Part shown: positions 2,758 to 50,780 of the stretch, piece after piece
Layout: each line of letters starts with the position of its first letter
Numbering within the stretch: position 1 is the stretch's first letter
Assembly: GCA_000092065.1 (NCBI GenBank)
Contig: CP000587.1
Length of the DNA stretch: 64,000 nt
DNA from: Ostreococcus lucimarinus
Taxonomy: Eukaryota
Direction: 5' to 3' (one strand)
Program-made: the position numbers and the translations under genes
The notes under the pieces: generated by a model
Database searches by the model: none
What the model was told of the DNA's origin: nothing
Seen by the model: only the letters and a program-made list of their open reading frames with translations

Positions 2758-3208
2758 CGTCGATCGTCGCGAAATCGTCTTAGACACTAGTACACTAGTC
2801 ACATCATTACAAAAAATCGCCCAGTCGCTCGCTCACTTCCTTCGCGTCGTCCTCGACGTCTTCGTCTTCGCCGACGACTCCCTCGCCGCCTTCTCGTTCC
2901 CGAGCTTCGCCAGGTACGCCAGCACCGCCAGCGCCGCGACGTCCACCGCGCCCGCGAACGGCGAGATCTCCTGTCCGCTTCCCTCCATCGCCATCGCCAT
3001 CGTCGGCGTCGCCGTCGCCGTCGCCGTCGCCATCGCCACCGCCGTCGCGACGCGTCCCACCGTCGTCGTCGTCTCGTCCCGTCGCGCGTCGCGCGCGCGC
3101 GTCGCCGCCCGCGTCGTTCGCGCGCGCGTTCGCGTCGTCGGACGCGTCGTCGTCGCCGTCGTCGTCGTCGTCGTCGCGATCATCGTCGTCGTCGTCGCGA
3201 TGTGCGTC

Positions 3209-3231
3209 GTCGGTCGGTCGGTCGGTCGGTC
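3209..3231. repeat. (CGGT/GGTC)n tetranucleotide repeat, preceded by GTC/GAC triplet and (GCCGTC)n tracts (2990-3200), upstream of the ENR gene
   Basis: cggtcggtcggtcggtcggtc. The same motif recurs at 49981-50020 and, as its complement, at 61081-61100. Confidence 0.85.
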
Positions 3232-3441
3232 TCACGACGAAAGCTAAAAACACGGACCTCCACCGCGGACTAACCTGACCCGGAACGGATAAAGCGACCG
3301 CGCGACGACGGCGACGGCGACGACGACTCGACGCGCGCGCGGGCGACACTGCGCGACGCACCGACGCGCGACCGCGAGCGACGCGAACGAGCGCGCCGGA
3401 CCGCGGACGACGGACGGAGAACGACACCGCGAAGAGGAAAG

Positions 3442-4452
3442 ATGCGCGCGACGACGATGCGACAATCGAGCGCGGTGACGGGGACGCGCGCGCGAACGAC
3501 GCGCGGGGCGCGCGCGGCGCGACCGCGAGCGACGACGACGACGCGGGCGGGATTGAACGTCGATCTGCGAGGGAAGAAGGCGTTCGTCGCGGGCGTGGCG
3601 GACGATAACGGGTTCGGGTGGGCCATCTCGAAGGCGCTGAGCGAAGCCGGCGCGGAGGTGATCCTCGGGACTTGGGTTCCGGCGCTGAACATCTTCGAGA
3701 CGTCGTACCGACGGGGGAAGTTTGACGAATCGCGTAAATTGAGCGATGGATCGATGATGACGTTCTCGAAGATTTACCCGATGGACGCCGTGTTCGACGC
3801 GATGGACGACGTTCCGGAGGACATCGCGACGAACAAGCGCTACGCGGGTAACGAAAAGTGGACCGTGAGCGAAGTCGCGAAGTGCGTCGAGGAAGATTTC
3901 GGTAAGATTGATGTTCTCGTGCACTCCTTGGCCAACGGCCCGGAAGTCGCCAAGCCTTTGCTCGAAACGAGCCGTAAGGGTTACTTGGCCGCCATCTCGG
4001 CGTCTTCTTACTCCAACGTGTCCATGATCCAACACTTCGGACCGTTGATGAACAAGGGTGGTGCCGCCATCTCTTTGACCTACCTCGCCTCCGAACAAAT
4101 CATTCCGGGCTACGGTGGTGGTATGTCCTCCGCGAAGGCGGCGCTCGAGTCCGACACCCGCGTCCTCGCGTACGAAGCCGGTCGCAAGTGGGGCATCCGC
4201 GTCAACACCATCTCCGCCGGTCCTCTCGGTTCTCGCGCGGCCAAGGCGATTGGGTTCATCGACAAGATGATCAACTACTCTCTCTCCAACGCGCCGCTCA
4301 AGGAGAAGCCGCTCGAAGCCATCGAAATCGGTAACACCGCCGCCTTCTTGTGCTCTCCGCTCGCCTCCGGCATCACCGGTGCGACCATCTACGTCGACAA
4401 CGGCCTCAACGCCATGGGTCTCGCCGAGACCGCTCCGGAGATTTCCGGTTAA
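3442..4452 (+). CDS. FABI: Enoyl-[acyl-carrier-protein] reductase (NADH), plastid-type FabI/ENR, with an N-terminal Arg/Thr-rich transit-like extension
   Basis: Near-identity to plant ENR/MOD1 across [23 protein letters not shown]...[12 protein letters not shown]...[20 protein letters not shown]...[14 protein letters not shown] at 3442, TAA at 4450-4452. Confidence 0.9.
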
Positions 4453-4719
4453 GCGCGCGTCCAGAACGTTTTGTTGAGGATGGCGAACACGGTCGGCAGT
4501 CGCGGACTCTGCGTTTCGAACGCACCGCGGCGACGACGCCTTCGTCTTCGCTCTCCTTTAGATGACGCAATTCAATATTTTAATTAGAGTCTCAGTGCTG
4601 ACGCCGAGGATCCTTCATCGTCACAATCGTCGTCCCGCGTCTTCACGGCGCGGACACCTCTTCGAACTCGAGGGTTTTCCGGGTGTTTTCAGGCCGTGGC
4701 TCACTTCGCGACGCGACGC

Positions 4720-4971
4720 ATGTCCCACCTCCTCGTCACCTTACGTCGAGGTACCGCGGGCAAACCGAAGACTATCCTCCAGACCTTGTCCGCGCTCGGT
4801 CTGCGCAAGACTCGAGACGCGCGCATCGTGCCGAACGACGCCGGCGCGCGAGGAAAGTTGAATCAAGTCAAGCACTTGGTCTCCGTGGAAACGCTGGAAG
4901 ACGCCGAACGACGCGTCGAAGCGCTGGCGAAGAAGCGCGCGCTGCGAACGCCGATCGTGAGCGAGCACTGA
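4720..4971 (+). CDS. Organellar (bacterial-type) ribosomal protein bL30
   Basis: Ribosomal_L30 fold: LLVTLRRGTAGKPKTILQTLSALGLRKTRDARIVPNDAGARGKLNQVKHLVSVE. The track ORF begins at a GTG (4696). First ATG at 4720. TGA at 4969-4971. A presequence may be supplied by an upstream exon (unresolved). Confidence 0.7.
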   Translation: MSHLLVTLRRGTAGKPKTILQTLSALGLRKTRDARIVPNDAGARGKLNQVKHLVSVETLEDAERRVEALAKKRALRTPIVSEH

Positions 4972-4975
4972 GGCG

Positions 4976-5785
4976 ATGCTGCTGCGCACGGCGAGCTGCG
5001 AGTCGCTGAGCGGGGGACGAGGGATGGCGAAACGCTCGGGACGAGGTCGAGGGACGGGGACGACGACGACGCGAGCGGTGTCGTCGTCGAGCGCGCCGCG
5101 AGCGCCGCACGTTTCGGTGTTGGATATGTGGCGCACGTGTGATGCGGTGGCGTTCGATGTGGATAGCACGGTGTGCGAAGATGAGGGCATCGACGAGCTC
5201 GGGGCGTACGTCGGTGCGGGCGAACGCGTAGAGGCCATCACAAAAAAGGCGATGGAGGGAGGGATGCCTTTCGGTGAGGCTTTACAAGCGAGATTAGAGG
5301 CCATGGCGATCACTCGGGAGCAGTTGGAGACGTACGTGGCGAAAAACCCGCCGAAATATTCACCGGGGATCAAAGAACTCACTGCCGCGTTGCGCGCGAG
5401 CGGTAAAGAAGTATACCTCGTCTCCGGTGGGTTCAGACAGATGATCGCTCCCGTGGCGAAAGGTTTGGGTATTCCAGTCGAAAATATCTACGCCAATACG
5501 ATAACGTTCAACGAGGACGGCTCGCTGAAAGGTTACGACGCCGGCGAGTTCACCTCGCGTTCGGGTGGCAAAGCCGAGGCGGTCAAGCACATCAAATCGA
5601 GTCGAGGGTACAACACGATGGTCATGGTCGGCGACGGCGCCACCGATCTTGAAGCGAAGATCCCCGGCGGTGCCGACATCGTTGTCGGCTACGGCGGCGC
5701 CCAGCGTCGCGCCAAAGTTGAAGCCGAAGCCGACTGGTTCGTGCTCGATTTATTCGTCCTCGCGGAAGCTCTCAAAGGTGCGTGA
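4976..5785 (+). CDS. PSP: Phosphoserine phosphatase (HAD family, SerB/PSP), with an N-terminal transit-like extension
   Basis: DAVAFDVDSTVCEDEGIDELGAYVG...SGGFRQMIAPVAKGLGIP...MVGDGATDLEA aligns with human PSPH and plant PSP. ATG at 4976, only 4 nt after the bL30 stop. Alternative ATG at 5023. Confidence 0.85.
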   Translation: MLLRTASCESLSGGRGMAKRSGRGRGTGTTTTRAVSSSSAPRAPHVSVLDMWRTCDAVAFDVDSTVCEDEGIDELGAYVGAGERVEAITKKAMEGGMPFGEALQARLEAMAITREQLETYVAKNPPKYSPGIKELTAALRASGKEVYLVSGGFRQMIAPVAKGLGIPVENIYANTITFNEDGSLKGYDAGEFTSRSGGKAEAVKHIKSSRGYNTMVMVGDGATDLEAKIPGGADIVVGYGGAQRRAKVEAEADWFVLDLFVLAEALKGA

Positions 5786-5998
5786 TTCGCACGCAAGTAT
5801 GTTTAGATGCGTTTTAAAGATAAAGTCATCGCATTGTGTATCACCGACTCCACACCAACCCTCGATGCGCCGCGATGACTTCGCGAGCTCGCGTTCGCGC
5901 GCGCCGCCAAAACCTGCGGCGCCTCGCTCGCGTGCCTCACTCACGCGCGCACGACGTCGACGGACGACGCGTCCGTCGAACGCGCGTGCGTCGCCGTC

Positions 5999-8900
5999 AT
6001 GGATGCCGCCGAACGCGGCGCGATCGCGTCGATGCCTCACGACGATGCGCCGACGACGACCGCCGGAACGACGGAGCTGTTCGGCAAGATTGACGGCGAG
6101 ACCGTGCGGTTCCTCGTCCAGAGCTCGTTCGCGGGCGATCAGCTCGATGAGTTGAAGCGGCAAATAGCGATGTTGCGCAGGCTGCGCGCGGGCGATCGGT
6201 TCGTGCTGCCGGGTCAAGGGACGCCGCGCGCGACGAAGGAGCGCGTTTTTGGCTTGTTGGACTTGGGGTGCGGGGCGGAGTTGCGCCTGAGCGATGCGAC
6301 GAAGACGTACTTCACGCACGCCGAGTGGATGTACTCGTATAGAGAATTACCGCTGTTTTCTCAACTTTCGGATGAAAGGTCGACCGATGCGGCCAAGGCG
6401 AAGTTTGCGAGGAAGCGCGACGGTGACGGTCGAGCCGAGTTGAATCTAGCCGACGTGAATAGATTGGCGACGAAACCGGTGGAGATTTTAGAACGCGAGG
6501 GGAAGAGGTTGTTGGAACACGCACATTTGCGAGAAATCGAACGGCTGCGAGAGGAAGCAGATGCTTTGAATGAGATGGACGACGACGGACAACGGCTCGC
6601 CTTGGAAAATCGCATCAAACAGCTTGAGTTGGTGAGGGTTCAACAGCGAGTAAGAAATGAGCTCGTGTTTGCGCAACAGGAGATAATGCAGATGCCGGAG
6701 CGAGCGTATAAGAAGATGGTCAAGGACAACATCAAAATACTCGCTGAGAAGAAGAAGAAGGCTGAGAAGAAGGAGAAGCAAGAACAGACAGCGTTCTATC
6801 GCAGTGTGCTAGCAATGCGTAAACGTATCAACGAAGAGTCGAACAACGCTCGCGATGAGCGCTTAGCAAGAAACAAAGCTGTGCTGAAAATGCACGAAAA
6901 GTTGAACCGCGAATTCATGCGAAAGGCTCGCGATGAAAATTCAGAACGTTTGTTGCGCCTGGAAGCGTTAAAGGCGAACGATTTAGCCGCATATCGCGAG
7001 TTACTCGCAGAGGCGAGAGGTCGCGAGACTGATATGACAGCTGAAGGCGAGGGTGACAAATATGAAGCTTTGACTTCGTTCTTAAACGCAACTGAATCGT
7101 ACTTAACCAAGCTTGGAGGGAAAATTGCCGCGGTGAAGATTGAGCAAGCGCGTTCAGAAGCCGCCGCCGCCGCCGCATCAGAGGCCGAGGCCAAAGGTCT
7201 TACTGAGGAAGAAGTCAAAGTCGTCGCGGAAGAAGCGGCAAACAGTGCAGCTATTGATCATGGTGAAGCCATTTTAGACGGTGCTGCGGATGGTGGAGAC
7301 ACGAAGGAGCGATACTATGCCATGGCGCATAGTACGCAAGAAATCATCACACATCAACCGCGCATGTTGACCTTTGGAAAACTTCGCGATTATCAGCTCG
7401 TGTCCCTGCAATGGATGATTTCGCTGTATAACAATAAGTTAAATGGTATTTTAGCTGATGAAATGGGTCTCGGGAAAACAGTTCAGGTGTGTGCGTTGAT
7501 TGCTTACTTGTTCGAAAGCAAGCAAAACTTTGGACCGCATCTCATCATCGTACCAAACGCCGTGATTGTGAACTGGAAAGCCGAAATCAGGCGATGGTTG
7601 CCGAAACTATCCACCGTGTTTTACGTCGGCTCAAAGGATGCGCGCGCTAAAATTTTCCAGCAACAAGTTTTGCAGCTCAAGTTCAACGTCCTCGTCACTT
7701 CTTACGAGTTCATCATGCGAGATCGATCCAAGTTGAGCAAAGTGGCATGGAAGTACATCATCATCGACGAAGCGCATCGGCTGAAGGATCGCGAAGGTCG
7801 CTTGAGTCGGGATTTGGATAAATTTAGAGCGCAACGTCGCTTACTTCTCACCGGTACTCCGTTACAAAACGAGTTGTCCGAGCTTTGGTCTCTCCTAAAC
7901 TTGCTCTTACCTGAGGTGTTCGACTCGTCAAAAGTGTTTCAAGAATGGTTTGGAGGGAACTCGAAGGTTAGTAACGACGCCGACGGCGAAGATTGGATCG
8001 AGAGAGAAAAGAAGGTTATCGTCATTAGTCGTTTGCATCAGATTCTTGAGCCTTTCATGCTGAGACGATTAGTGCAAGATGTTGAGAGCAAGCTTCCGCC
8101 TCGCGTCACCGTCATCGTCCACTGTCCGTTCAGCGCCTTTCAGTCAGCTTGTTACGACTGGATTCGTAAAACGGCCTCCATTCGCGTTGAACCAGGAACT
8201 AGAATAGGACTGGCGGCACAGCAAAACTTCCGTGGGTACTTGCCACTCCAAAACAGGGCGATGGAACTCCGCAAGCTCTGCAATCATCCGTCGCTGAGTT
8301 ACCCTCCTGAAAAGGGTGGAGATTTCCGAGGTCCGAACCTTGTGCGCGCGGGCGGTAAGTTTTGGATATTGGATCGATTGCTCGTGAAGTTGCAACGCTC
8401 AGGGCATCGAGTGTTGTTATTCTGTACTATGACAAAGCTCCTTGACTTGTTGGAAAACTACTTACAGTGGAGATGGACCACTCCGGATGGTCAAGACTTG
8501 AAGTATTGTCGCATCGATGGAAACACTTCATTGGAGCAGCGCGAGATTGCTATTAACGATTTCAACGCACCTCACAGCGATAAGTTTATCTTCTTGCTCT
8601 CTATCAGAGCCGCTGGTCGTGGTTTGAATCTTCAGACGGCGGATACCGTGGTAGTGTACGATCCAGATCCAAACCCGAAAAATGAAGAACAAGCCATCGC
8701 ACGAGCGCATCGCATCGGCCAAACGCGAGAAGTGCGTGTGATCCACTTTGAAGCAGTCGACGATGACATCGTGCAGAAAAAGAAGGGAAGCAAGAAGGAA
8801 GAAGTTGGTTGGGGCGGTCCAAATAGAAGCTACTGCGAATCCCTCGAGTCGTCCGTTCGCAACGTCATTCAAAAACAAAAGATTGAAATGGCTGCTGAAA

Positions 8901-12333: not shown

Positions 12334-12827
12334 CGTCACCGCCGCGACGCCCGTCGGCGTCGATCTCGCGCGCGCGCGTCACGCTCGCGAGTGCGGCGTC
12401 CGTCGCGGCGTCGTCGCGGCGTCATTTCAAAAAAAACCGACCGCCGGACCGCGGCGACCGCGTCCATCGACCGACCGACGCGCGATCGATCGCGAGACCG
12501 CGAATCGCGCGATCGCGCGAACCTCGAGGCGTCGATCGACCGATCGCGCGATCGGTCGATCGATGGACGCGCGCGCGTAACGACCGCGGACGGCGACGGC
12601 GACGGCGACGGCGCGACGCGACGCGCGATGGCGACGGCGCGACGCGGTGCGCGGGCGACGGTGCGCGCGGGACGAGGGTGCGGCGCGCGCGACGCGCGAC
12701 GGCGAGGCGAGGCGGCGGCGAGGCGAGGACGAGACGCGGGCGAGCGACGAGGACGCGCGCGCGCGGCGGCGAGGGTGGATTTGGACGACGAGGACGTGGA
12801 CGCTGGGTACGTCCCGGGACGAGGTGC

Positions 12828-12866
12828 GCGATGCGATGCGATGCGATGCGATGCGATGCGATGCGC
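12828..12866. repeat. (GCGAT)7 pentanucleotide microsatellite in the HIRA / Mini-III divergent intergenic region
   Basis: gcgatgcgatgcgatgcgatgcgatgcgatgcg. A (GACGGC)n run lies at about 12590-12615 in the same spacer. Confidence 0.85.
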
Positions 12867-12945
12867 GCGAACGGCGGGGTGCGGTTTGGTCGAAAGACGC
12901 GGTGACTGACGGGGAGACGACGAGGACGCAGACGCGCTCGAACGC

Positions 12946-13446
12946 GTGGAGGCGAGCGGGACGGCGCGGTCGAGCTCGCCGGGGGAGGTTTGGGTGCCCG
13001 AAGATTTGGTCGATTTGCGAGGGAAATCGGCGAGGCAGTGGAGTCCGATCGCGTTGGCGTTTTTAGGCGACGCCGTGTTCGAGTTGTACGCGCGAGGGGT
13101 GTTTTTTTACCCGCCCGCGAAACCGCTCGAATACGATTTGAAGACAAAGCGACTGGCGCGCGCCGAGGCGCAGGATTTTTTGCTCAGGCTCTTGATCGAC
13201 GGCGACGCGTTGAGCGAGGAGGAGGTTTCAATCGTAAAATGGGGGCGGAACGCGGCGTACGGGAACATTCCGACGCGATTAAAAGGGAAAGGGAAGGGCG
13301 GGCACGGGACGTATCGCAACGCGAGCGCGCTCGAGTGCCTCGTGGGCTACCTCTACGTCGTCGATCGCGCGCGACTGCAGGAAGTGATGACGATCGTCAT
13401 GTCTGAGACCGCCATCGAGGGCGCGTTGGCGCTGTCTTCGAAATAG
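12946..13446 (+). CDS. Mini-ribonuclease III (Mini-III/RNC3-4-like single RNase III domain, plastid type). The 5' end is unresolved.
   Basis: ALAFLGDAVFELYAR is the RNase III catalytic signature, and the ORF is short and single-domain. The frame is open from 12910 with no ATG until near the C-terminus. The track 'M' at 12946 is a GTG. Confidence 0.65.
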   Translation: MEASGTARSSSPGEVWVPEDLVDLRGKSARQWSPIALAFLGDAVFELYARGVFFYPPAKPLEYDLKTKRLARAEAQDFLLRLLIDGDALSEEEVSIVKWGRNAAYGNIPTRLKGKGKGGHGTYRNASALECLVGYLYVVDRARLQEVMTIVMSETAIEGALALSSK

Positions 13447-13528
13447 TTGTTGTCGTTATCTATCTGTACACGTTCTTTCTTCTAGCGAGCGCCTCTCCCC
13501 TCTCCTCGCGCCTCTCTACCGCCCGCGT

Positions 13529-13792
13529 CTACCGCCCGCGCGCGCGATTGACGTACAAATTCGCGATGGACAGCCCTAAAAACAACCCATACAACCCCGC
13601 CGCCTGCGACAGATTCGCGCTCGCGATCTCGTGCGTCATTCCCGGCGCTTTCCAATCCGAACCGAGGTGCGCGTAGTGCTTCTTAAACAGATGCGACAGC
13701 GCCGCGCAGACGACGACACCGAACGCGCTGAGTCCGGCGCAGCACGTCGCGCTTTGCGAGCTCGTCGCGATCGCGAGCACGCGGCCGAACAT
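13529..13792 (-). CDS. Small two-helix membrane protein (87 aa), function unknown
   Basis: Genuine ATG at 13792. Two hydrophobic helices (VLAIATSS...VVVCAALSHLF and AAGLYGLFLGLSIANLYV). Sits in a gap between converging genes. Confidence 0.4.
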   Translation of the reverse strand: MFGRVLAIATSSQSATCCAGLSAFGVVVCAALSHLFKKHYAHLGSDWKAPGMTHEIASANLSQAAGLYGLFLGLSIANLYVNRARGR

Positions 13793-25480: not shown

Positions 25481-26791
25481 TTAGTCGCTGTCCTCGTCCT
25501 CGCTCTCGTCGAGCCAGTCGATGAACTTGGCGGCTTGCTTGCGAACGGCTTGGGCGACTTTGGGCTCGACGTCGATGCACGAGGCGGCGTCCACGTCTTC
25601 ATTCCAAGCCTTGATGACGTCTTCTTCGATGAGATCGAACTCGTAGAGCTGATTGAGAATAAGAGAGAACGCCTTAAAACCAGAAGTGGCGGTTTCGGTG
25701 ACGTAACGTTCGAAGGCGCACAAGAGCGCGCGTTGAAGCGCAGCATCCGGGCACGCGGCGCTCAAGTAATCCTTCTTCGCTTTGATTTGCGGAGGAATGG
25801 CCTCGTCTTCGTCAAAAACGGCTTCGAGGAGGAACAAGACGCCCATTTCCTTGGATTCGACGCCAAGGGCATCAGAGACGAGATATTCGGCCGTTTTCAC
25901 GGCGTCATTTTTCGCCGCGTACGCGCGAAGCTTGGACACTCGAGGATCCTCCTCTTCTTCCGAGCTCTCGTCCTCGATGGCGGCGTCCGCCATCTTATCC
26001 GCGACCACGGTGACCATGTTCGCCGCGCCGTCAGTAAGCTGTTCGATTGCTCGCGCTTTCGCGGCGGCGGCAGAAGTATCAGTCGCCCACTGGACTTCGT
26101 CATCGTCGTCGTCGTCGGCTTCAGAGGCGGAGGAAGCGTCGCCCGCCTCGGCGGGCGCGTCGTCGGTTTTTTCCTTCTTCTCCTTCTTCTCCTTCTTCTC
26201 TTTCTTCTCTTTCTTCTCTTTCTTCTCTTTCTTTTCCTTCTTTTCAGACTTACGTCGTCGACGTTCTTCGTCATCGATCGCTGCACCAGCCTCTTCGCGT
26301 TCGCGTTCGGCGCGGCGCAGTTGCTTTTCCTTTTTGTCCTTTTTAATTTCCGGAGGATTCTTGCAAATGTAACCACACAGCTTGTGTCGCATATCGACGT
26401 CGGAAAGCGCCCCGCACGCCTTACATTTCAAGTGAATCGTCTCTCGCTTGGTAATCTCAATCATCGTCTCCGGATTACCGCACGAAAAGCACTGCACGAA
26501 ACGTTTGATGAAACTCTCCAAACTCTGCGCGAGCTTCCCCGCGTCGTGCGCCCCGTTCACGATCGCGCGTCCTTCCTTTTCGTTAAAAGTCGTCTGCGCC
26601 CCGAGATCGTTCCCTAAAAACTTCAACGTGTACATCGGCGGTCGCGCCAACGCCTTGGACACCTCCACGAGGTTCGTCACGTTTGTCTTGATCCCGTTCC
26701 CGCGCCCCTCGATTTTAGACTGAATGGCTGGCATTTTATACCGATAAAACTGGTCCCCGGCGTTGGACGCCCCGATGTTTATCATCGCCAT
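25481..26791 (-). CDS. EIF5: Eukaryotic translation initiation factor 5 (eIF5), with Zn-ribbon and W2 domains
   Basis: N-terminus DQFYRYKMPAIQSKIEGRGNGIKTNVTNLVEVSKALARPP...CFSCGNPET...CKACG is eIF5. A long (KEK/EKK)n charged linker is encoded by TTCTCCTTCTTC-type repeats at about 26170-26250. Confidence 0.9.
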   Translation of the reverse strand: MAMINIGASNAGDQFYRYKMPAIQSKIEGRGNGIKTNVTNLVEVSKALARPPMYTLKFLGNDLGAQTTFNEKEGRAIVNGAHDAGKLAQSLESFIKRFVQCFSCGNPETMIEITKRETIHLKCKACGALSDVDMRHKLCGYICKNPPEIKKDKKEKQLRRAEREREEAGAAIDDEERRRRKSEKKEKKEKKEKKEKKEKKEKKEKKEKTDDAPAEAGDASSASEADDDDDDEVQWATDTSAAAAKARAIEQLTDGAANMVTVVADKMADAAIEDESSEEEEDPRVSKLRAYAAKNDAVKTAEYLVSDALGVESKEMGVLFLLEAVFDEDEAIPPQIKAKKDYLSAACPDAALQRALLCAFERYVTETATSGFKAFSLILNQLYEFDLIEEDVIKAWNEDVDAASCIDVEPKVAQAVRKQAAKFIDWLDESEDEDSD

Positions 26792-27059
26792 CGCGCCTCA
26801 CCTCTCGCGCTTCCGCGTCGCTCGTCCCGTTCGCGCCCCTCGCTCGTCTCTCGCGGCGCGTTCCGTCGTCGCTCGCCGACGCCCCCGCGCGCCGCCCTTC
26901 GTCCTTCGCCAGCCGTCGTCGCCGGTCGCCTCTCTTCTCGGCGTCGCGTGCGTCTCGCTCGCGCATGCACGTCTCGGTTCGCGTCGCGTTCGTCCTCGTC
27001 CGTGGCCTCGCGAGTCGTCACATGCACGTCTTCGTCGACGCGTCGCGGTGTCGCGATCG

Positions 27060-28631
27060 ATGCGATTCGATCGCATCGCTCGATCGCGGCGGCGATTCGG
27101 TGGATTCGGTGTGATTCGCACTTCGCGGCGCGCGACGACGACCATGGGCGCGCGAGATGGGCTGCGACACGCGCAGTTCAAACCTATGAAACGCGCCATG
27201 GACGGCGCGTTCGGCGATCGAGAGCACGGCGCGGCGGCGAACGTCGAGGGGACGACGCGCGCGCACGCGAGCGACGGATCGAGCTTCGTCATGACGCAGC
27301 CGAGCGGACTGGCGCGGTCGCAGCAGGTGTTCCTGGCGCAAAAGTTTTTAAATCTGCCGGCGATGCCGAGCTACGTCGAGAGCGAGGGAGGGATGGTGCT
27401 CGATCGAGTGGTGCTGAACGCGGGACGGGGGAATTGGTGGACGACGCTCACGGCGCGCGCGCGAGCGCAACGCGCGTGGAACACGGAACAAGTGCAAGAG
27501 GGGAAGGCGCATCGAGCGCTGTTGGATCCATCGATGTACGCGTTGGGAGGGAGGTTCAGGGCAAACGCGTTGGAGAACGTGGCGGTGAAAGCGATCGGGG
27601 AGTTGGGGTCGGTGAAGGGCGTCACGCGCGCGTTTGCGAAAAAGTTCAAGCTGAGCGACGAGAAGGACGACGACGCCGAGGCGGCGTTGAATCCACGCGG
27701 CAGGGTCTCCGTGCAAGCGAAACTTCCGTCGCATTTACTCAGTGTGGATTTGTCGCACAATGAGAGGTACCAAACGGACGATAGGTACGTGGACGGTCCC
27801 ACGTCGGCGTCGGTGAGCGTGTCCTCGCGCGGTCGTCGAGCGATCAACTACCGCGTGAGCGCGCGCAAGTGGTTGGGGGACTTGGTACCGTTCGATAGGA
27901 AGCACGGAGGAGGGATGCGAACGCCGCCGAGGAAAGAATTACAAGCTGGTGTGTCGTACGAGCAACAAGCGGTGTTATGGCGCGGTCGTCGACGCCGCAA
28001 ACCGAAATCATCGAGCGCGGTGAGCGGGTACACCGCGCTGCCGCAAGTGCCGACGATTACGGTGGGGGGAATTTACGGGGCGGTCGTGCGGAAGAGTTTA
28101 GATGATGATTACAAAGATGGCGAGCAAACTGAACTGCAAAATTTCGGCTCGTTATCTGTGAATGCACAAGTTGGGTCTTTCGCACGTCCTTTGCTCGATT
28201 TCACGTCGATCAATCTGCGACTCGACGCGGGCGGTATGGGAACGCCCAACAAGCCGCTCGACGCGGCGGCTCAAACACCACTGCCTCTGGCGGATCGTTT
28301 GATCACCATGGGGGGTCGATTGAAAGCAAATCCGGTTTCAGTGACGCTAAGTCTTGGACAGCAACTTCTCGGTCCGCTGCGATTCAGAGCCGAAGTGCGC
28401 GCCAGCGGCGCGGAGGCTTTGTCCGCCACGCGCGCGGGCCTCTCCGCGCTCAAGGAACGAAAGACCATGACGGAGGTTCGCGAGTCCATTCAAAAGCAAA
28501 TCGTGAAGCCAGAAGTTGTGTACGGCTTAGATTGTGCATTACCTCCAACGATCGGTAGTGCGCGCGTCGTAGCGTGGTACAACGCGACGAGACAGGAAGC
28601 CATGGCGGAGCTCCGACTGTTCGACTTGTAG
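27060..28631 (+). CDS. TGD4-like (DUF3769/LptD-like) plastid outer-envelope beta-barrel lipid-trafficking protein. Assignment is tentative.
   Basis: C-terminal LSLGQQLLGPLRFRAEVR...ARVVAWYNATRQEAMAELRLFDL resembles my recollection of the Arabidopsis TGD4 C-terminus (…VSYSPKQNEFMVELRFFET). Terminal aromatic/Leu is beta-barrel-like. The track ORF start (26763) is TTG overlapping eIF5. ATGs at 27060 and 27144. Confidence 0.45.
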   Translation: MRFDRIARSRRRFGGFGVIRTSRRATTTMGARDGLRHAQFKPMKRAMDGAFGDREHGAAANVEGTTRAHASDGSSFVMTQPSGLARSQQVFLAQKFLNLPAMPSYVESEGGMVLDRVVLNAGRGNWWTTLTARARAQRAWNTEQVQEGKAHRALLDPSMYALGGRFRANALENVAVKAIGELGSVKGVTRAFAKKFKLSDEKDDDAEAALNPRGRVSVQAKLPSHLLSVDLSHNERYQTDDRYVDGPTSASVSVSSRGRRAINYRVSARKWLGDLVPFDRKHGGGMRTPPRKELQAGVSYEQQAVLWRGRRRRKPKSSSAVSGYTALPQVPTITVGGIYGAVVRKSLDDDYKDGEQTELQNFGSLSVNAQVGSFARPLLDFTSINLRLDAGGMGTPNKPLDAAAQTPLPLADRLITMGGRLKANPVSVTLSLGQQLLGPLRFRAEVRASGAEALSATRAGLSALKERKTMTEVRESIQKQIVKPEVVYGLDCALPPTIGSARVVAWYNATRQEAMAELRLFDL

Positions 28632-37774: not shown

Positions 37775-38817
37775 TTACAGTTCCGCCTTGGCTTCCTTCG
37801 TCGCGTATTTACCGAGTCCGATGGTATTTTTTGATCGCTTGTCCGCACGTTTGATGGGAAACGGCATGCGTCCTCGTTGTGCTTCCTCGGGTAACATCGC
37901 CAAATACTTGTTGCAGAATTGAATCAGGGTGTTTTCGTTGAAACTATCGATCAGCCTCGCCTCGGCGTCGCGCTTCTTGCTCACGGGATCGTAACCGACG
38001 ATCGCAAGCCTTCCCCCAGCGAGCACGTCCATGTACTCCTGCTCCTCACCCTCGTAAACGGCAGTTTGCAAATATATGAGATCCTTTGTCGTCGGCGGCA
38101 CGACGTGAATGAGAACCATAAAGCCAGAAATGGCCTCTCCGACCTTTTCTAATGTTTTGTGAATGCGCACCCCATACTCGTCCGCGAATTCTTTAAGCAT
38201 GAACACAAACACTTTGGGCATGTCATTTTTCGCGTGCAGATTCGCTCGTTGAACTTCATCGACGGTACCTCTATTATCGGGAAACTCGGGCCATTTCGCG
38301 TACGGCGGAATGAGAGTGAAGAATGCGAAGCGCACTATGCTCGACACGTTGCGTTGCAAGCTCTCGGTCATCTCAGTCATGTGGTCGCTGTCCATGTAAT
38401 GTGGCGCCGGAATGAACACCTTGGCGAGTGCGTGCTCAGACTTCAATTTCAACGCTCGGCCGAAAGTGACATCATCGTGTCCGTACGAGCGAAACGTGTT
38501 TTCCGCGTCGGTGAACGCGTCAATCGCCGCTTGATGAACGCTCCCGGGCCGAAACAAAGCCAGAACCGCCAGCGTCTCCGTGCGTGAATCTTCGACAAAT
38601 TTGAGCAAGTCTCTTTCGGCGTCGAACTCCTCGACTGCGCGCACACCGGTGAACCGCTACGATCGAGGAATCCTCCGGTCAGTCTCACCACGCGCGCTCA
38701 TCGTGTCGATCAATTCAAGGCCATACGAGAACGAGTTCGAGGCGCCGTCGCTGCGCTTACCTCGCTCGCGAAGCACAACGCGAGGATAAGTGCGATTACT
38801 GATAACGATCGTCGCAT
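37775..38817 (-). CDS. Two-exon gene join(37775..38656,38761..38817) for an ER-luminal protein (312 aa): signal peptide plus a thioredoxin-fold-like body, ending in KAEL (a KDEL/KEEL-like retrieval signal)
   Basis: Exon 1 is ATG38817-MRRSLSVIALILALCFASE followed by a GTAAGC donor. A 104-nt intron ends CGATCGTAG and contains GAGACTGACC 23 nt upstream of the AG. Exon 2 begins RFTGVRAVEEFDAERD and is in frame to the stop at 37775. The track ORF began at a GTG inside exon 2. Confidence 0.6.
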
Positions 38818-38934
38818 GTTCGCTGCGGTTGATCTCGCAAGTGCGCCGACGTGTGCTGTCTGTCGCCCACGCGCGATGTCGACATCAATCACTCTGCGCT
38901 CCACTCGAGCCAACATCCAGAAACGACTTGTCAA

Positions 38935-39768
38935 ACAGTCGAGGCCGAGTTGTGAACGTCAACATGGAAAGTCTTACCCAGGTATCCATATGGATTTCGA
39001 TGCCCGCTCACAAATCGCGGAGAATTCAAGGAAATCCCCGACGGCGTACGCTGCACACCATGAACGCGCGTCGCGGTCGATTCGGCCGGCGTCGCGGTCG
39101 CTACCTCGGCGCGCGAGAAATAAATGAAATAATTAAATAATTTCTATGCGAACGCCACGGGCTCGCCAGCGAAGCGTCAATCGCGCGTCGCGCTCGACGC
39201 CCGTAATAATGCGATCACGAATCACCAATGGAATTAATTTCACGCGAAACCACGCGCATCTCGGTCGTCTGATATCAAATTCACACTTTCGACGACTGCT
39301 GGGCGAAAATTTCTCACATCGAGATGATCTGTCAAAACACATGCATGTCGCGTCGATAGGCGTAGAACCACCAAAAGTGCATTTGTTGGAGGTAAATGGT
39401 GTGTCGAAACTCATAGCCGCAACTTTTACAAAACCTTGACGCGATTCAGTGCTTGTGCATTCACGTTCCATGATGACGATAATTAAATATAATCTGAGCG
39501 CTTAAAATAATTAATTGCGCGGCGGAAACAATTCATTCGCGCTTGATATTGCACGTGCTATCTTGCTAAGTTTTCTAGTACTCTATCCTTGCGAGACTCC
39601 TCAAAATCATCGAGTCTCGCGCGAGTAGCGAAATAAATCCACCCGCGACGAAAATTAATAAGCCAATTAAATAAATCAGTCCGTGAAGAAATCGCCTGTG
39701 AGCGCACGTAATTTTGTTAGTCATCCTACGGAGAGCGTTCTGCGAGTGTGAGCGATCTTAGTGAACAC
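38935..39768. other. Atypically AT-rich intergenic island (about 830 bp) with reiterated AATTAAATAA-like motifs
   Basis: Contains taaatgaaataattaaataattt, gataattaaatataatc, aaaataattaattgcg and aaaattaataagccaattaaataaatcag. Base composition contrasts sharply with the flanking GC-rich DNA. No ORF or recognisable RNA gene. Confidence 0.5.
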
Positions 39769-48863: not shown

Positions 48864-49919
48864 TCACTCGCGTTGGAGCGCTCGCTCGGCTAAGTACAGG
48901 GCGCTCGTGAGACCGGTTTGATAGCCCCACGCGGGAGGAACGATGAAGTGTCGTAAATAAGCATCGTCCATGATTTGATCGACGGCTAGGTAGCCCTGCA
49001 AGATGTCTCGGACGTTGGCACGAATCTTGCTGAATAAGCACTCGCGCTGCATGACGCCACCGCCGAGGACGATGCGCTCAGGGGCGAGGGTTAAGATGAG
49101 ATTGACGCACATGCCGGCAAGATAATGTGCGGCATGTTCCCAAATGTCATCGTCATCCGGAAGCGATGCGAGCTCGGCGGCTGAGACGCCCCGTCGTTTT
49201 GCCAACGCTCCGCTTCCGACCATGCCTTCCACGCAGTTGCCATGAAACGGACACGTTCCCGCAAACGTTTCCCCTGCTCTCATCTTGACGAACATGTGAC
49301 CCGCCTCAGGATGTAGCATACCGTGCACTGGTAAGCCATTGCACACCACACCAACCCCGACGCCCGTACCCACGGTGACGTAACAACACGACTCGCCGCC
49401 CACGAGATGGACGTGTTTCAACTCGTGTTTCAACGCCCTATGTTCCAACATCGCCGGCGCATTGACGTCCGTTTCAAACGCCAAAGGCACCTGATCGATC
49501 GTGTGCAATCGAGCGCGTCCTCGCCACGCCCTTTCCTCCTCCTCCGTCGCGTCCTTTTTCCCGAACAGACTGCCCAAGACGTCGACGTCTTGCCACCCCG
49601 CCTTCGGCGTCGTCGTGATGTATCCGTACTTGTCTTTATCTGGATTCAGCTCCAACGGCCCGAAAGTCGCCACCCCGATCGCATCCGCGTCCCACGCGTT
49701 GATTTCGATCCACTCTCGTATCGTTCGCAGCGTCTCCTCCGGCGTCGTCGTCTCAAACCTCTGTTCCCGCCCGCCGTCCCTCTTGTTGAAATGCTCCTCC
49801 CCTCGCGCGCTCGACGCGCTGCTCACGCTCGCACCGCCCTCGACGTCGATCTCGATCGCGCGCGCGATCCACGTCGTCCCTCCGCCTTCGATCCCGAGCA
49901 GTTTCATCCGCCTGCCCAT
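48864..49919 (-). CDS. ROK-family sugar kinase (fructokinase/N-acetylglucosamine-kinase-like)
   Basis: ROK N-terminus LLGIEGGGTTWIARAIE and zinc motif GTCPFHGNCVEGMVGSGA. ATG at 49919 (MGRRMKLLG). The upstream part of the track ORF is GC-rich leader. Confidence 0.7.
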   Translation of the reverse strand: MGRRMKLLGIEGGGTTWIARAIEIDVEGGASVSSASSARGEEHFNKRDGGREQRFETTTPEETLRTIREWIEINAWDADAIGVATFGPLELNPDKDKYGYITTTPKAGWQDVDVLGSLFGKKDATEEEERAWRGRARLHTIDQVPLAFETDVNAPAMLEHRALKHELKHVHLVGGESCCYVTVGTGVGVGVVCNGLPVHGMLHPEAGHMFVKMRAGETFAGTCPFHGNCVEGMVGSGALAKRRGVSAAELASLPDDDDIWEHAAHYLAGMCVNLILTLAPERIVLGGGVMQRECLFSKIRANVRDILQGYLAVDQIMDDAYLRHFIVPPAWGYQTGLTSALYLAERALQRE

Positions 49920-49980
49920 CGCGCGCGCTCGCGCGTCGGCGCGCGTCGAGCAATCCCAATCGTTCGCGCGCGGCAACGAC

Positions 49981-50020
49981 CGCGGTCGGTCGGTCGGTCG
50001 GTCGTCGGTCGCGGTCGGTC
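49981..50020. repeat. (GGTC)n-rich tetranucleotide tract in the ROK / eL37 divergent promoter
   Basis: cgcggtcggtcggtcggtcggtcgtcggtcgcggtcggtcg. Confidence 0.85.
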
Positions 50021-50198
50021 GACGCGCGTTCGAAATCGCGTACAACGCGTAAATGCGCGCCCAAGAGACGCGCGCGTGCGCGTCGTCATAAGTCTTAAAC
50101 ACTGATCACAAACACGGACACCACGGCCCGATCGCGCGCGCACGCCCTCGCCCTCGCCCCGTCGCATCGACCTCTTTACGCGACGCGAGCGACGAGAC

Positions 50199-50780
50199 AT
50201 GGGTAAGAAAGGAAAAGGTACCGGGTCCTTCGGTTCCCGACGTAACAAATCGCACACTCTGTGCCGACGGTGCGTGTGCGCTCGAGACGACGCGCGCGAC
50301 GCGAGGGAGGCGACGACGCGGGAAGACGACGGTGACCCTAGTAGGGCTTTGGGATGACGACGACTGACGACGACGACGCGACGCCGACGCGTCGTTCGCG
50401 CGCGCAGATGCGGGAAGCGATCGTACCACATTCAAAAGTCTACGTGCGCGGCCTGCGGGTATCCGTCCGCGCGGACGCGTTCATGTACGTGTGCACGATG
50501 CGAAGTCGACTCGACTCGATCGCGGCGGAGCGTCGATCGCGGGCGACGAGCGCCGCGAGACGTGGCGTCTCGCGACGCGCGACGGCGAGCGAGAGCTCGA
50601 AGCGCGCGAGATTGGTGACTGACCTTTCCTTGTTTTCAACGCACAGACAACTGGAGCGTGAAGGCGATCGGCCGCAAGACCACGGGTACCGGCCGCATGC
50701 GCTACTTGAAGACCTTGCCCAGAAGATTTAAGAATGGTTTCCGGGAAGGTACGGAGGCGAAAAAGAAGGTCGCTGCGTAA
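50199..50780 (+). CDS. RPL37: Cytosolic ribosomal protein eL37, three exons: join(50199..50269,50408..50484,50647..50780), 93 aa. Missed by the ORF track.
   Basis: Spliced product [23 protein letters not shown]|[26 protein letters not shown]|[44 protein letters not shown] carries the C4 zinc ribbon and the conserved eL37 C-terminus. Introns are GTGCGT...CGCGCAG (138 nt) and GTACGT...ACGCACAG (162 nt), each with ACTGAC upstream of the AG. Confidence 0.85.

Follow-up and report, generated by a model that had tools for sequence, protein, structure and literature searches.

A 64,000-nucleotide (nt) stretch of the Ostreococcus lucimarinus genome (contig CP000587.1, assembly GCA_000092065.1; hereafter, the window) carries an open reading frame (ORF) for a ribosomal protein of the L30 family, followed after four bases by a second ORF, on the same strand and in a different frame, for phosphoserine phosphatase (PSP). 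The pair lies between the gene for the enoyl-ACP reductase FabI and an SNF2-family ATPase gene. Here, we report the content of this candidate bicistronic locus, its conservation among related algae, and the route by which ribosomes may reach the second ORF.

The two reading frames and their junction

Across the junction, the sequence reads gagcacTGAggcgATGctg (longer excerpt, agcgagcacTGAggcgATGctgctg), with the TGA of the first ORF (4969-4971), GGCG (4972-4975), and the ATG of the second (4976-4978) in direct succession; re-reading bore out the 4-nt spacer given in a preliminary description of the window. Same-strand gaps in the window (stop-to-start distances from a heuristic set of non-overlapping ORFs) were -16 (one ambiguous ORF pair), 4, and then 112 to 1373 nt (median, ~300 nt), and the 4-nt spacing is an outlier beyond chance. 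The GC content at the junction was 0.70, versus 0.44-0.51 in true intergenic DNA on either side, with no AT-rich dip; it was 0.49-0.51 around 4500-4650, which includes the AT-rich tract caattcaatattttaattag, and went down to 0.44 at 5750-5850, around the end of PSP. The intergenic regions before and after the pair (Table 1) are probably the promoter and 5′ leader (without ATG over 4565-4719) and the 3′ untranslated region (UTR) and poly(A) region, respectively, of a two-gene unit. The TGAGGCGATG junction was invariant in all 17 environmental O. lucimarinus-type contigs compared, and near-identical contigs are widespread among marine metagenomes. A single-base indel polymorphism (none, T, or A) was seen among the environmental contigs of this type at 4693, 27 nt 5′ of the first ATG.

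The first ORF (ORF1; 252 nt of conserved coding sequence) encodes a protein identical to XP_001418762.1 (O. lucimarinus CCE9901) and matches Ribosomal_L30 (Pfam PF00327; E=1.1e-12). Because it passes a bacterial-type L30 model (NCBIfam rpmD_bact, TIGR01308; score, 48.4; cut-off, 44.65) and aligns over its full length, C-terminal tail included, to Arabidopsis mitoribosomal uL30m (PDB 6xyw chain Az, 6xyw_Az; E=4e-11), with residues 4-83 on residues 19-98 of At5g55140 in that mitoribosome structure, ORF1 is uL30m, predicted to be mitochondrial by orthology. The earlier label bL30 was replaced, since the L30p/L7e family is universal and its members are uL30. A second protein search with uL30m returned 16 matches, all from close Mamiellales relatives and none from other green algal classes.

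The second ORF (ORF2) matches Pfam HAD/Hydrolase (E=1e-15) and the HAD-IB model TIGR01488 (93.4 against a cut-off of 45). Its best model is TIGR00338 (serB), from the library used by NCBI for bacterial and archaeal annotation, at 137 bits, just below the cut-off of 144. Identity to plant proteins annotated as "phosphoserine phosphatase, chloroplastic" was 50-58%, and the motifs FDVDST, SGGF, GGK (GGKA), and GDGATD were invariant across 23 orthologues. By these matches, the predicted enzyme is a plastid-type phosphoserine phosphatase (HAD-IB, SerB/PSPH type).

Its start codon has been placed differently by different sources. The RefSeq model XP_001418763.1 (219 aa) starts at the third in-frame ATG, M51 (this form, P0122, begins MWRTCDAV); some prokaryote-style gene callers start at the second, M17, giving 253 aa (P0131); and an MMETSP transcript ORF from an O. 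lucimarinus-type strain (P0123; 269 aa, "complete") starts at ATG 4976. The later in-frame ATGs had previously been put at 5023 and 5129 and were corrected to the positions in Table 1. Following RefSeq, PSP would begin MWRT at ATG 5126 without a targeting extension, the upstream in-frame ATGs would be fortuitous, and 154 nt of non-coding DNA would separate the two genes. We regard this as very improbable on several grounds. Among the three PSP ATGs, 5126 has the worst context (6th percentile of a start matrix that ranks 5024 at the 89th, PSP 4976 at the 75th, and uL30m 4720 at the 31st; indicative only), and 4972-5125 has a GC content of ~0.7, unlike real intergenic DNA here. A start at M51 would drop the extension, of similar length in the green-lineage orthologues aligned, together with residues aligned to the consensus PSxxVLxxW just 5′ of the HAD core. 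Another Ostreococcus lineage conserves the 13 residues encoded directly from ATG 4976, the N-terminus MLLRTASCESLSG aligning with MLRAASYESLSG of P0005, a lineage only 67% identical overall. Micromonas-like PSP genes encode the extension in an exon of its own, exon 1, which is joined in frame by splicing, and MMETSP transcript ORFs begin at the first ATG.

The true PSP start is probably ATG 4976, which makes the RefSeq model 50 codons short and leaves it without the extension, a putative plastid transit peptide; ATG 5024 is a possible additional initiation site inside that peptide. With the truncated RefSeq model, the genes seem to lie 154 nt apart, which conceals the bicistronic arrangement. 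Two further possibilities named in the preliminary description fared poorly. A first PSP exon located elsewhere was rejected, given an ORF continuous from ATG 4976, its conserved N-terminal residues, and the position of PSP exon 1 directly after uL30m in Micromonas-like genomes; and a PSP transcription start site (TSS) downstream of 4971 is disfavoured by the start of the P0123 transcript ORF at 4976.

Table 1. Features of the uL30m-PSP locus, in window coordinates
Feature	Position	Strand	Remarks
FabI-uL30m intergenic	4453..4719	+	FabI (enoyl-ACP reductase) stop at 4452
ORF1, uL30m	4720..4971	+	83 aa; stop TGA 4969-4971
Junction TGA-GGCG-ATG	4969..4978	+	ORF1 stop, 4-nt spacer, ORF2 start; ORF2 in a different frame
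ORF2, phosphoserine phosphatase (PSP)	4976..5785	+	269 aa, 810 nt; stop TGA 5783-5785
PSP N-terminal extension (50 residues)	4976..5125	+	Transit-peptide-like; R/S/T/A/G-rich; omitted by RefSeq model
Second in-frame PSP ATG (M17)	5024..5026	+	Context gagggATGgc; G at -3, G at +4
Third in-frame PSP ATG (M51)	5126..5128	+	Start of RefSeq XP_001418763.1 (219 aa)
PSP-SNF2 intergenic	5786..5998	+	Precedes SNF2-family ATPase gene (ATG 5999)

Conservation of the pair and RNA evidence

The order FabI-uL30m-PSP was kept in every related locus fetched, and across 10 lineages the uL30m-PSP spacer measured -1, -1, 1, 4, 8, 19, 32, 76, 77, and 124 nt; in the same loci, the FabI-uL30m gap and the gap from PSP to the next gene ran from 170 to ~1,000 nt. 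Close stop/start geometry was found only in Ostreococcus-like lineages, where the codons overlap by 1 nt in L012 (cacTGATG) and in the O. mediterraneus type, L014 (cacTAATG), and lie 1 nt apart in L016 (TGAgATG) and 4 nt apart in O. lucimarinus (TGAggcgATG). A further Ostreococcus-like lineage, L015, has TGA plus 32 nt, and the Micromonas-like lineages have TGA plus 8 nt (L020/L021), TAA plus 19 nt (L017), TGA plus 76 or 77 nt (L018 and L019, respectively), and TGA plus 124 nt (L022). The lineages are related but well diverged (50-76% nucleotide identity in the uL30m ORF). The Micromonas-like loci have a high GC content, and those known from genomic contigs (L017-L019) have introns and neighbouring intergenic regions of 360-1000 nt. 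Because the pairing is kept where neighbouring intergenic DNA amounts to several hundred nt, compaction alone is insufficient to account for it.

In none of the 10 lineages was the spacer a multiple of three, so the two ORFs are always in different frames; the pattern may be due to chance, the lineages being related, or to fusion proteins made by read-through being avoided. Fusion by stop-codon read-through or frameshifting was rejected as an account of the pair on the same observation.

RNA carrying both ORFs was found in Micromonas-like relatives. Contig L021 (1,290 nt) opens with a leader of 84 nt, followed by the uL30m ORF (85-330), the spacer gctcagat, the PSP ORF (339-1160), a 3′ UTR of ~105 nt, and 24 A residues, and it is without the uL30m intron (~190 nt) and the PSP intron (~125 nt) of genomic L017. 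The A-run is a non-templated poly(A) tail, because sequence other than A follows at that position in the sister contig L020, and contigs encoding the PSP protein P0015 derive from RNA, because P0015 is the spliced product. L021 is a mature, spliced, polyadenylated bicistronic mRNA. Both ORFs are also carried by L020 and by L022, a contig from a JGI sample carrying an MMETSP transcript ORF, in which they are 124 nt apart. No ATG occurs in the 5′ leaders, at least 35-84 nt long, of the RNA contigs from these relatives.

TGTAA is the Chlamydomonas-type poly(A) signal. It occurs in L021 ~19 nt before the tail (about 1241-1266); a motif search of O. lucimarinus 5786-5998 and 4453-4719 gave no TGTAA or AATAAA. 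RNA-derived L020 runs on beyond the PSP 3′ end (1315-1822) into the antisense of a convergent downstream gene, which suggests that 3′ ends of convergent transcripts overlap in the Micromonas-like lineage.

RNA also covers the O. lucimarinus junction, since the MMETSP ORF P0123 starts at ATG 4976; P0152, an MMETSP ORF of O. mediterraneus, likewise has as its start codon the ATG that shares a base with the uL30m TAA. When JGI metagenome contigs were scanned for exact copies of the 28-nt junction, only four long genomic contigs were found and no transcript contigs. Two Logan contigs spanning both ORFs, L027 (1,232 nt) and L028 (1,072 nt), were considered as transcripts and set aside; they have no intron and no poly(A) tail and were not counted as RNA. 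A literature look-up of sequencing-run accessions for library types gave no match. On present evidence, O. lucimarinus itself very probably makes a bicistronic uL30m-PSP mRNA. Spliced-leader trans-splicing of a polycistronic precursor was rejected, as the relatives have mature, polyadenylated bicistronic RNA and the 4-nt or overlapping spacers leave no room for processing.

Proposed initiation at the second reading frame

None of the 10 lineages has an ATG, whatever the frame, between the uL30m ATG and the PSP ATG (2,866 nt), where CAT occurs 12 times, GAT 23, GTA 15, AGT 13, and TGA 41. In O. lucimarinus, uL30m has no internal ATG in any frame, and the AUG-free interval from its start to AUG 4976 spans 256 nt; window coding sequences contain 0.0134 ATG per nt, and only 3.8% of 253-nt coding windows are free of ATG. 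The first 256 nt after the PSP ATG hold 1-8 ATGs per lineage. In L017, the sole ATG between the two starts falls in the 193-nt uL30m intron (2350-2542), and the spliced mRNA is AUG-free. The Arabidopsis uL30m orthologue has four internal Met residues in the aligned region and the algal proteins none. When synonymous codons were resampled with each lineage's own codon usage, the probability of zero ATGs was 0.06-0.11 for four of the five Ostreococcus-like lineages and 0.32 for the other.

The uL30m start lies in the context cgacgcATGtcc, with C at -3, C at -1, and T at +4. At this AUG, C at -1 is found in 10 of 10 lineages and a pyrimidine at -3 in 9 of 10, while neighbouring leader bases vary. 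Among heuristically placed gene starts in the window, 67% carry G at -1, and the PSP AUG has GCG at -3 to -1, the local consensus.

The reading that we prefer, with a probability of roughly 0.6, is that uL30m and PSP form one nuclear transcription unit with a bicistronic mRNA on which PSP is reached by leaky scanning. One capped, polyadenylated mRNA would be made from uL30m (4720-4971) and PSP (4976-5785). Some 43S complexes would start at the uL30m AUG, given the poor context just described, and others would scan past it; across the AUG-free 256 nt, these scanning complexes would arrive at AUG 4976, and PSP would be translated from there together with its N-terminal targeting extension. Co-transcription, one of the options raised for the junction in the preliminary description, is supported by the spliced, polyadenylated two-ORF RNA contigs of the relatives, and further by the lack of AUG between the two starts and the poor context at the first.

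Another option raised there was a PSP promoter within uL30m. In its full form, two overlapping monocistronic mRNAs would be made, with the PSP TSS inside the uL30m coding sequence and the uL30m poly(A) site inside the PSP coding sequence, and read-through RNA would be a by-product on which only uL30m is translated. Ostreococcus intergenic regions are among the shortest of free-living eukaryotes (average, <200 bp; PMC2367439), and overlapping transcription units are known in other compact genomes, both of which lend this arrangement some plausibility. It gives no account, however, of the complete and specific absence of ATG across uL30m in 10 diverged lineages or of the invariant poor -1 base at the uL30m AUG, the mature RNA of the relatives is bicistronic, spliced, and polyadenylated after PSP, and the tight pairing persists in Micromonas-like genomes with neighbouring intergenic regions of 360-1000 nt. 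We consider it improbable. An internal promoter is possible as the source of an additional isoform; as a full explanation it leaves the AUG depletion over the whole of uL30m unaccounted for.

The main rival to leaky scanning accepts the bicistronic mRNA and has PSP made mainly by termination-reinitiation (translational coupling), the 40S subunit staying on after the UGA and restarting 4 nt downstream. In its favour, the uL30m stop and PSP start of four Ostreococcus-like lineages either overlap or are separated by 1-4 nt, as in viral reinitiation cassettes, and the PSP AUG has a poor -3 base where the codons overlap. Where no special element is present, reinitiation is usually efficient only after far shorter ORFs. 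Here, ORF1 has 81-87 codons, and upstream-ORF length is negatively related to reinitiation efficiency (PMC11892635). AUG depletion near the stop codon would also be expected under reinitiation (PMC11892635), but AUGs are absent from the whole of ORF1 and not only near its stop. The ORF1 AUG context is conserved as poor, where reinitiation would favour a strong one, and the spacer reaches 124 nt in relatives that demonstrably make bicistronic RNA. No UGGGA (motif 1 of the termination upstream ribosome-binding site, TURBS) was found in or after the uL30m ORF, TGGGA being absent from 4720-4980 in a motif search, and an Rfam scan of 4400-6100 gave no RNA element, only a chance-level microRNA match on the other strand. 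In vivo tests in Auxenochlorella favoured leaky scanning (PMC11892635). Termination-reinitiation as the main route is unlikely on this evidence, though a more serious contender than overlapping mRNAs; for the step itself, delivery of ribosomes to PSP by leaky scanning rather than by reinitiation appears somewhat better than an even proposition. A stricter form, in which PSP synthesis in Ostreococcus is coupled to termination on uL30m (83-87 codons), would amount to prokaryote-like coupling on a nuclear mRNA with no recognisable TURBS-like tether, and we hold it to be doubtful, slightly more so than reinitiation at large. If true, it would fix the uL30m:PSP ratio and tie serine synthesis to mitoribosome production.

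Several points weigh against leaky scanning on a single mRNA. Bicistronic RNA was seen in relatives, and for O. lucimarinus the support is indirect, from the start of the P0123 ORF; translation of both ORFs is predicted. Contig L027 ends exactly at the polymorphic indel at 4693, which suggests that its end is an assembly break rather than a TSS. The sampled lineages are not phylogenetically independent, and in the GC3-rich (GC-rich at third codon positions) Micromonas-like lineages, the resampled probability of zero ATGs was 0.2-0.7, with absence of out-of-frame ATGs expected about half the time. These lineages add little statistical weight, because ATG absence is often expected at such GC3. 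The start-site matrix was built from only 36 heuristically placed starts and holds little information, so that the predicted weakness of the uL30m context in O. lucimarinus rests mainly on invariance across lineages. In the two lineages with overlapping codons, the PSP AUG has a pyrimidine at -3 and no better context than that of uL30m; overlap together with a poor PSP -3 base is the geometry predicted by reinitiation or coupling.

Known systems, other features of the window, and significance

The preliminary description called such an arrangement unusual for a eukaryotic nuclear genome, which is generally true and outdated for green algae, where polycistronic nuclear mRNAs have been documented in Chlamydomonas, Chromochloris, and Auxenochlorella (Gallaher 2021, PMC7896298; Dueñas 2025, PMC11892635). 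These bicistrons have a median ORF1 length of 291-357 nt, a weak Kozak-like context at ORF1, AUG depletion before ORF2, and, in some cases, overlapping stop/start codons (PMC7896298, PMC11892635), with inter-ORF medians of 40-183 nt (PMC11892635). Leaky scanning was shown there in vivo by mutating the ORF1 context, and other such pairs include small mitochondrial ribosomal proteins, namely MRPL63, which is annotated as the first gene, and MRPL23 (PMC7896298, PMC11892635). The uL30m-PSP pair is alike in consisting of two unrelated conserved ORFs on one strand and in different frames, with an ORF1 of 252 nt, a gap far below that between neighbouring colinear genes, an apparently poor ORF1 AUG, no AUG before ORF2, stop/start overlap in some lineages, and mature, spliced, polyadenylated bicistronic RNA in relatives. 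It differs in having been found from the Mamiellales side, with RNA support in Micromonas-like lineages; in the earlier work, O. lucimarinus and M. pusilla were only searched for colinear orthologues of Chlamydomonas and Chromochloris pairs, without transcript support (PMC7896298, PMC11892635). An L30-phosphoserine phosphatase pair was absent from the text and searchable supplements of these two papers (the 2021 supplements were outside that search), and literature searches for protein-coding polycistrons or bicistrons in Mamiellophyceae gave nothing beyond them. The pair adds a member to an already described kind of green-algal bicistron.

Two other kinds of system invite comparison. The viral termination-reinitiation cassettes of calicivirus VP1/VP2 and influenza B M1/BM2 combine UAAUG or AUGA overlaps with a TURBS element. 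The uL30m-PSP pair resembles them in its overlapping or nearly touching codons (UGAUG or UAAUG in two sister lineages, a 4-nt gap in O. lucimarinus) and in the different frame of ORF2; unlike them, it is a cellular nuclear pair without a UGGGA or TURBS-like motif 5′ of the junction, its spacer is unconserved (-1 to 124 nt), its weak ORF1 start is conserved, and its ORF1 is AUG-free. The compact genomes of microsporidia and nucleomorphs have multi-gene or overlapping transcripts, and the present locus shares with them very short or absent spacers and transcripts over more than one gene. To our knowledge, the downstream ORFs of those run-on transcripts are generally thought to be untranslated, and we know of no AUG-free ORF1 signature described for them, whereas the uL30m-PSP pair has a strong signature of selection for ORF2 translation and persists in the less compact Micromonas-like genomes. 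A cellular parallel, cited in PMC11892635, is CDC26-TTM3, a bicistronic locus of land plants and green algae that is likewise deeply conserved in the green lineage and has a small ORF1 followed by a phosphatase ORF2. The proteins differ, being a cell-cycle peptide (CDC26) and a triphosphate tunnel metalloenzyme (TTM3) there and uL30m and a HAD-family PSP here, and no homology is expected.

Elsewhere in the window, a 175-aa ORF on the minus strand (49904-50431) runs 16 nt into the 5′ end of a same-strand ORF for a 351-aa ROK-family sugar kinase (48864-49919). The 175-aa ORF had no Pfam match and could be a spurious GC-rich ORF, a case of a mis-set start, or part of a second tight pair; as a second bicistron, 48864-50431 was set aside, since the upstream ORF is without a family match and may be spurious. 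Two divergent long ORFs, 25481-26791 (minus strand) and 26775-28631 (plus strand), share 17 nt at their 5′ ends if each is taken from its first ATG, and at least one true start probably lies downstream of the first ATG. Two stretches of ~1.36 kb each (12334-13690 and 38396-39768) are without a long ORF in an otherwise tightly packed window and may harbour non-coding RNAs, short genes, or genes with introns. A low-complexity ORF rich in Asp, Gly, and Arg (2807-3427, minus strand) lies between the genes for Serinc and FabI; for this ORF, metagenome pipelines call a gene of 116-151 aa with no family match.

The uL30m-PSP pair provides a well-supported bicistronic nuclear locus from Mamiellophyceae, ecologically dominant marine picoalgae for which earlier polycistrons were inferred only from colinearity with Chlamydomonas. 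The RefSeq PSP model, probably truncated, is likely to place the enzyme in the wrong compartment in silico; late starts of this kind will recur in compact algal genomes wherever gene finders disallow near-zero spacing, and such errors distort the predicted location of the phosphorylated serine pathway. Drift of the spacer from 124 nt to a 1-nt overlap forms a natural series on inter-ORF distance, stop/start overlap, and leaky scanning versus reinitiation, and the short natural inter-ORF junctions could serve as trial co-expression cassettes in Ostreococcus.

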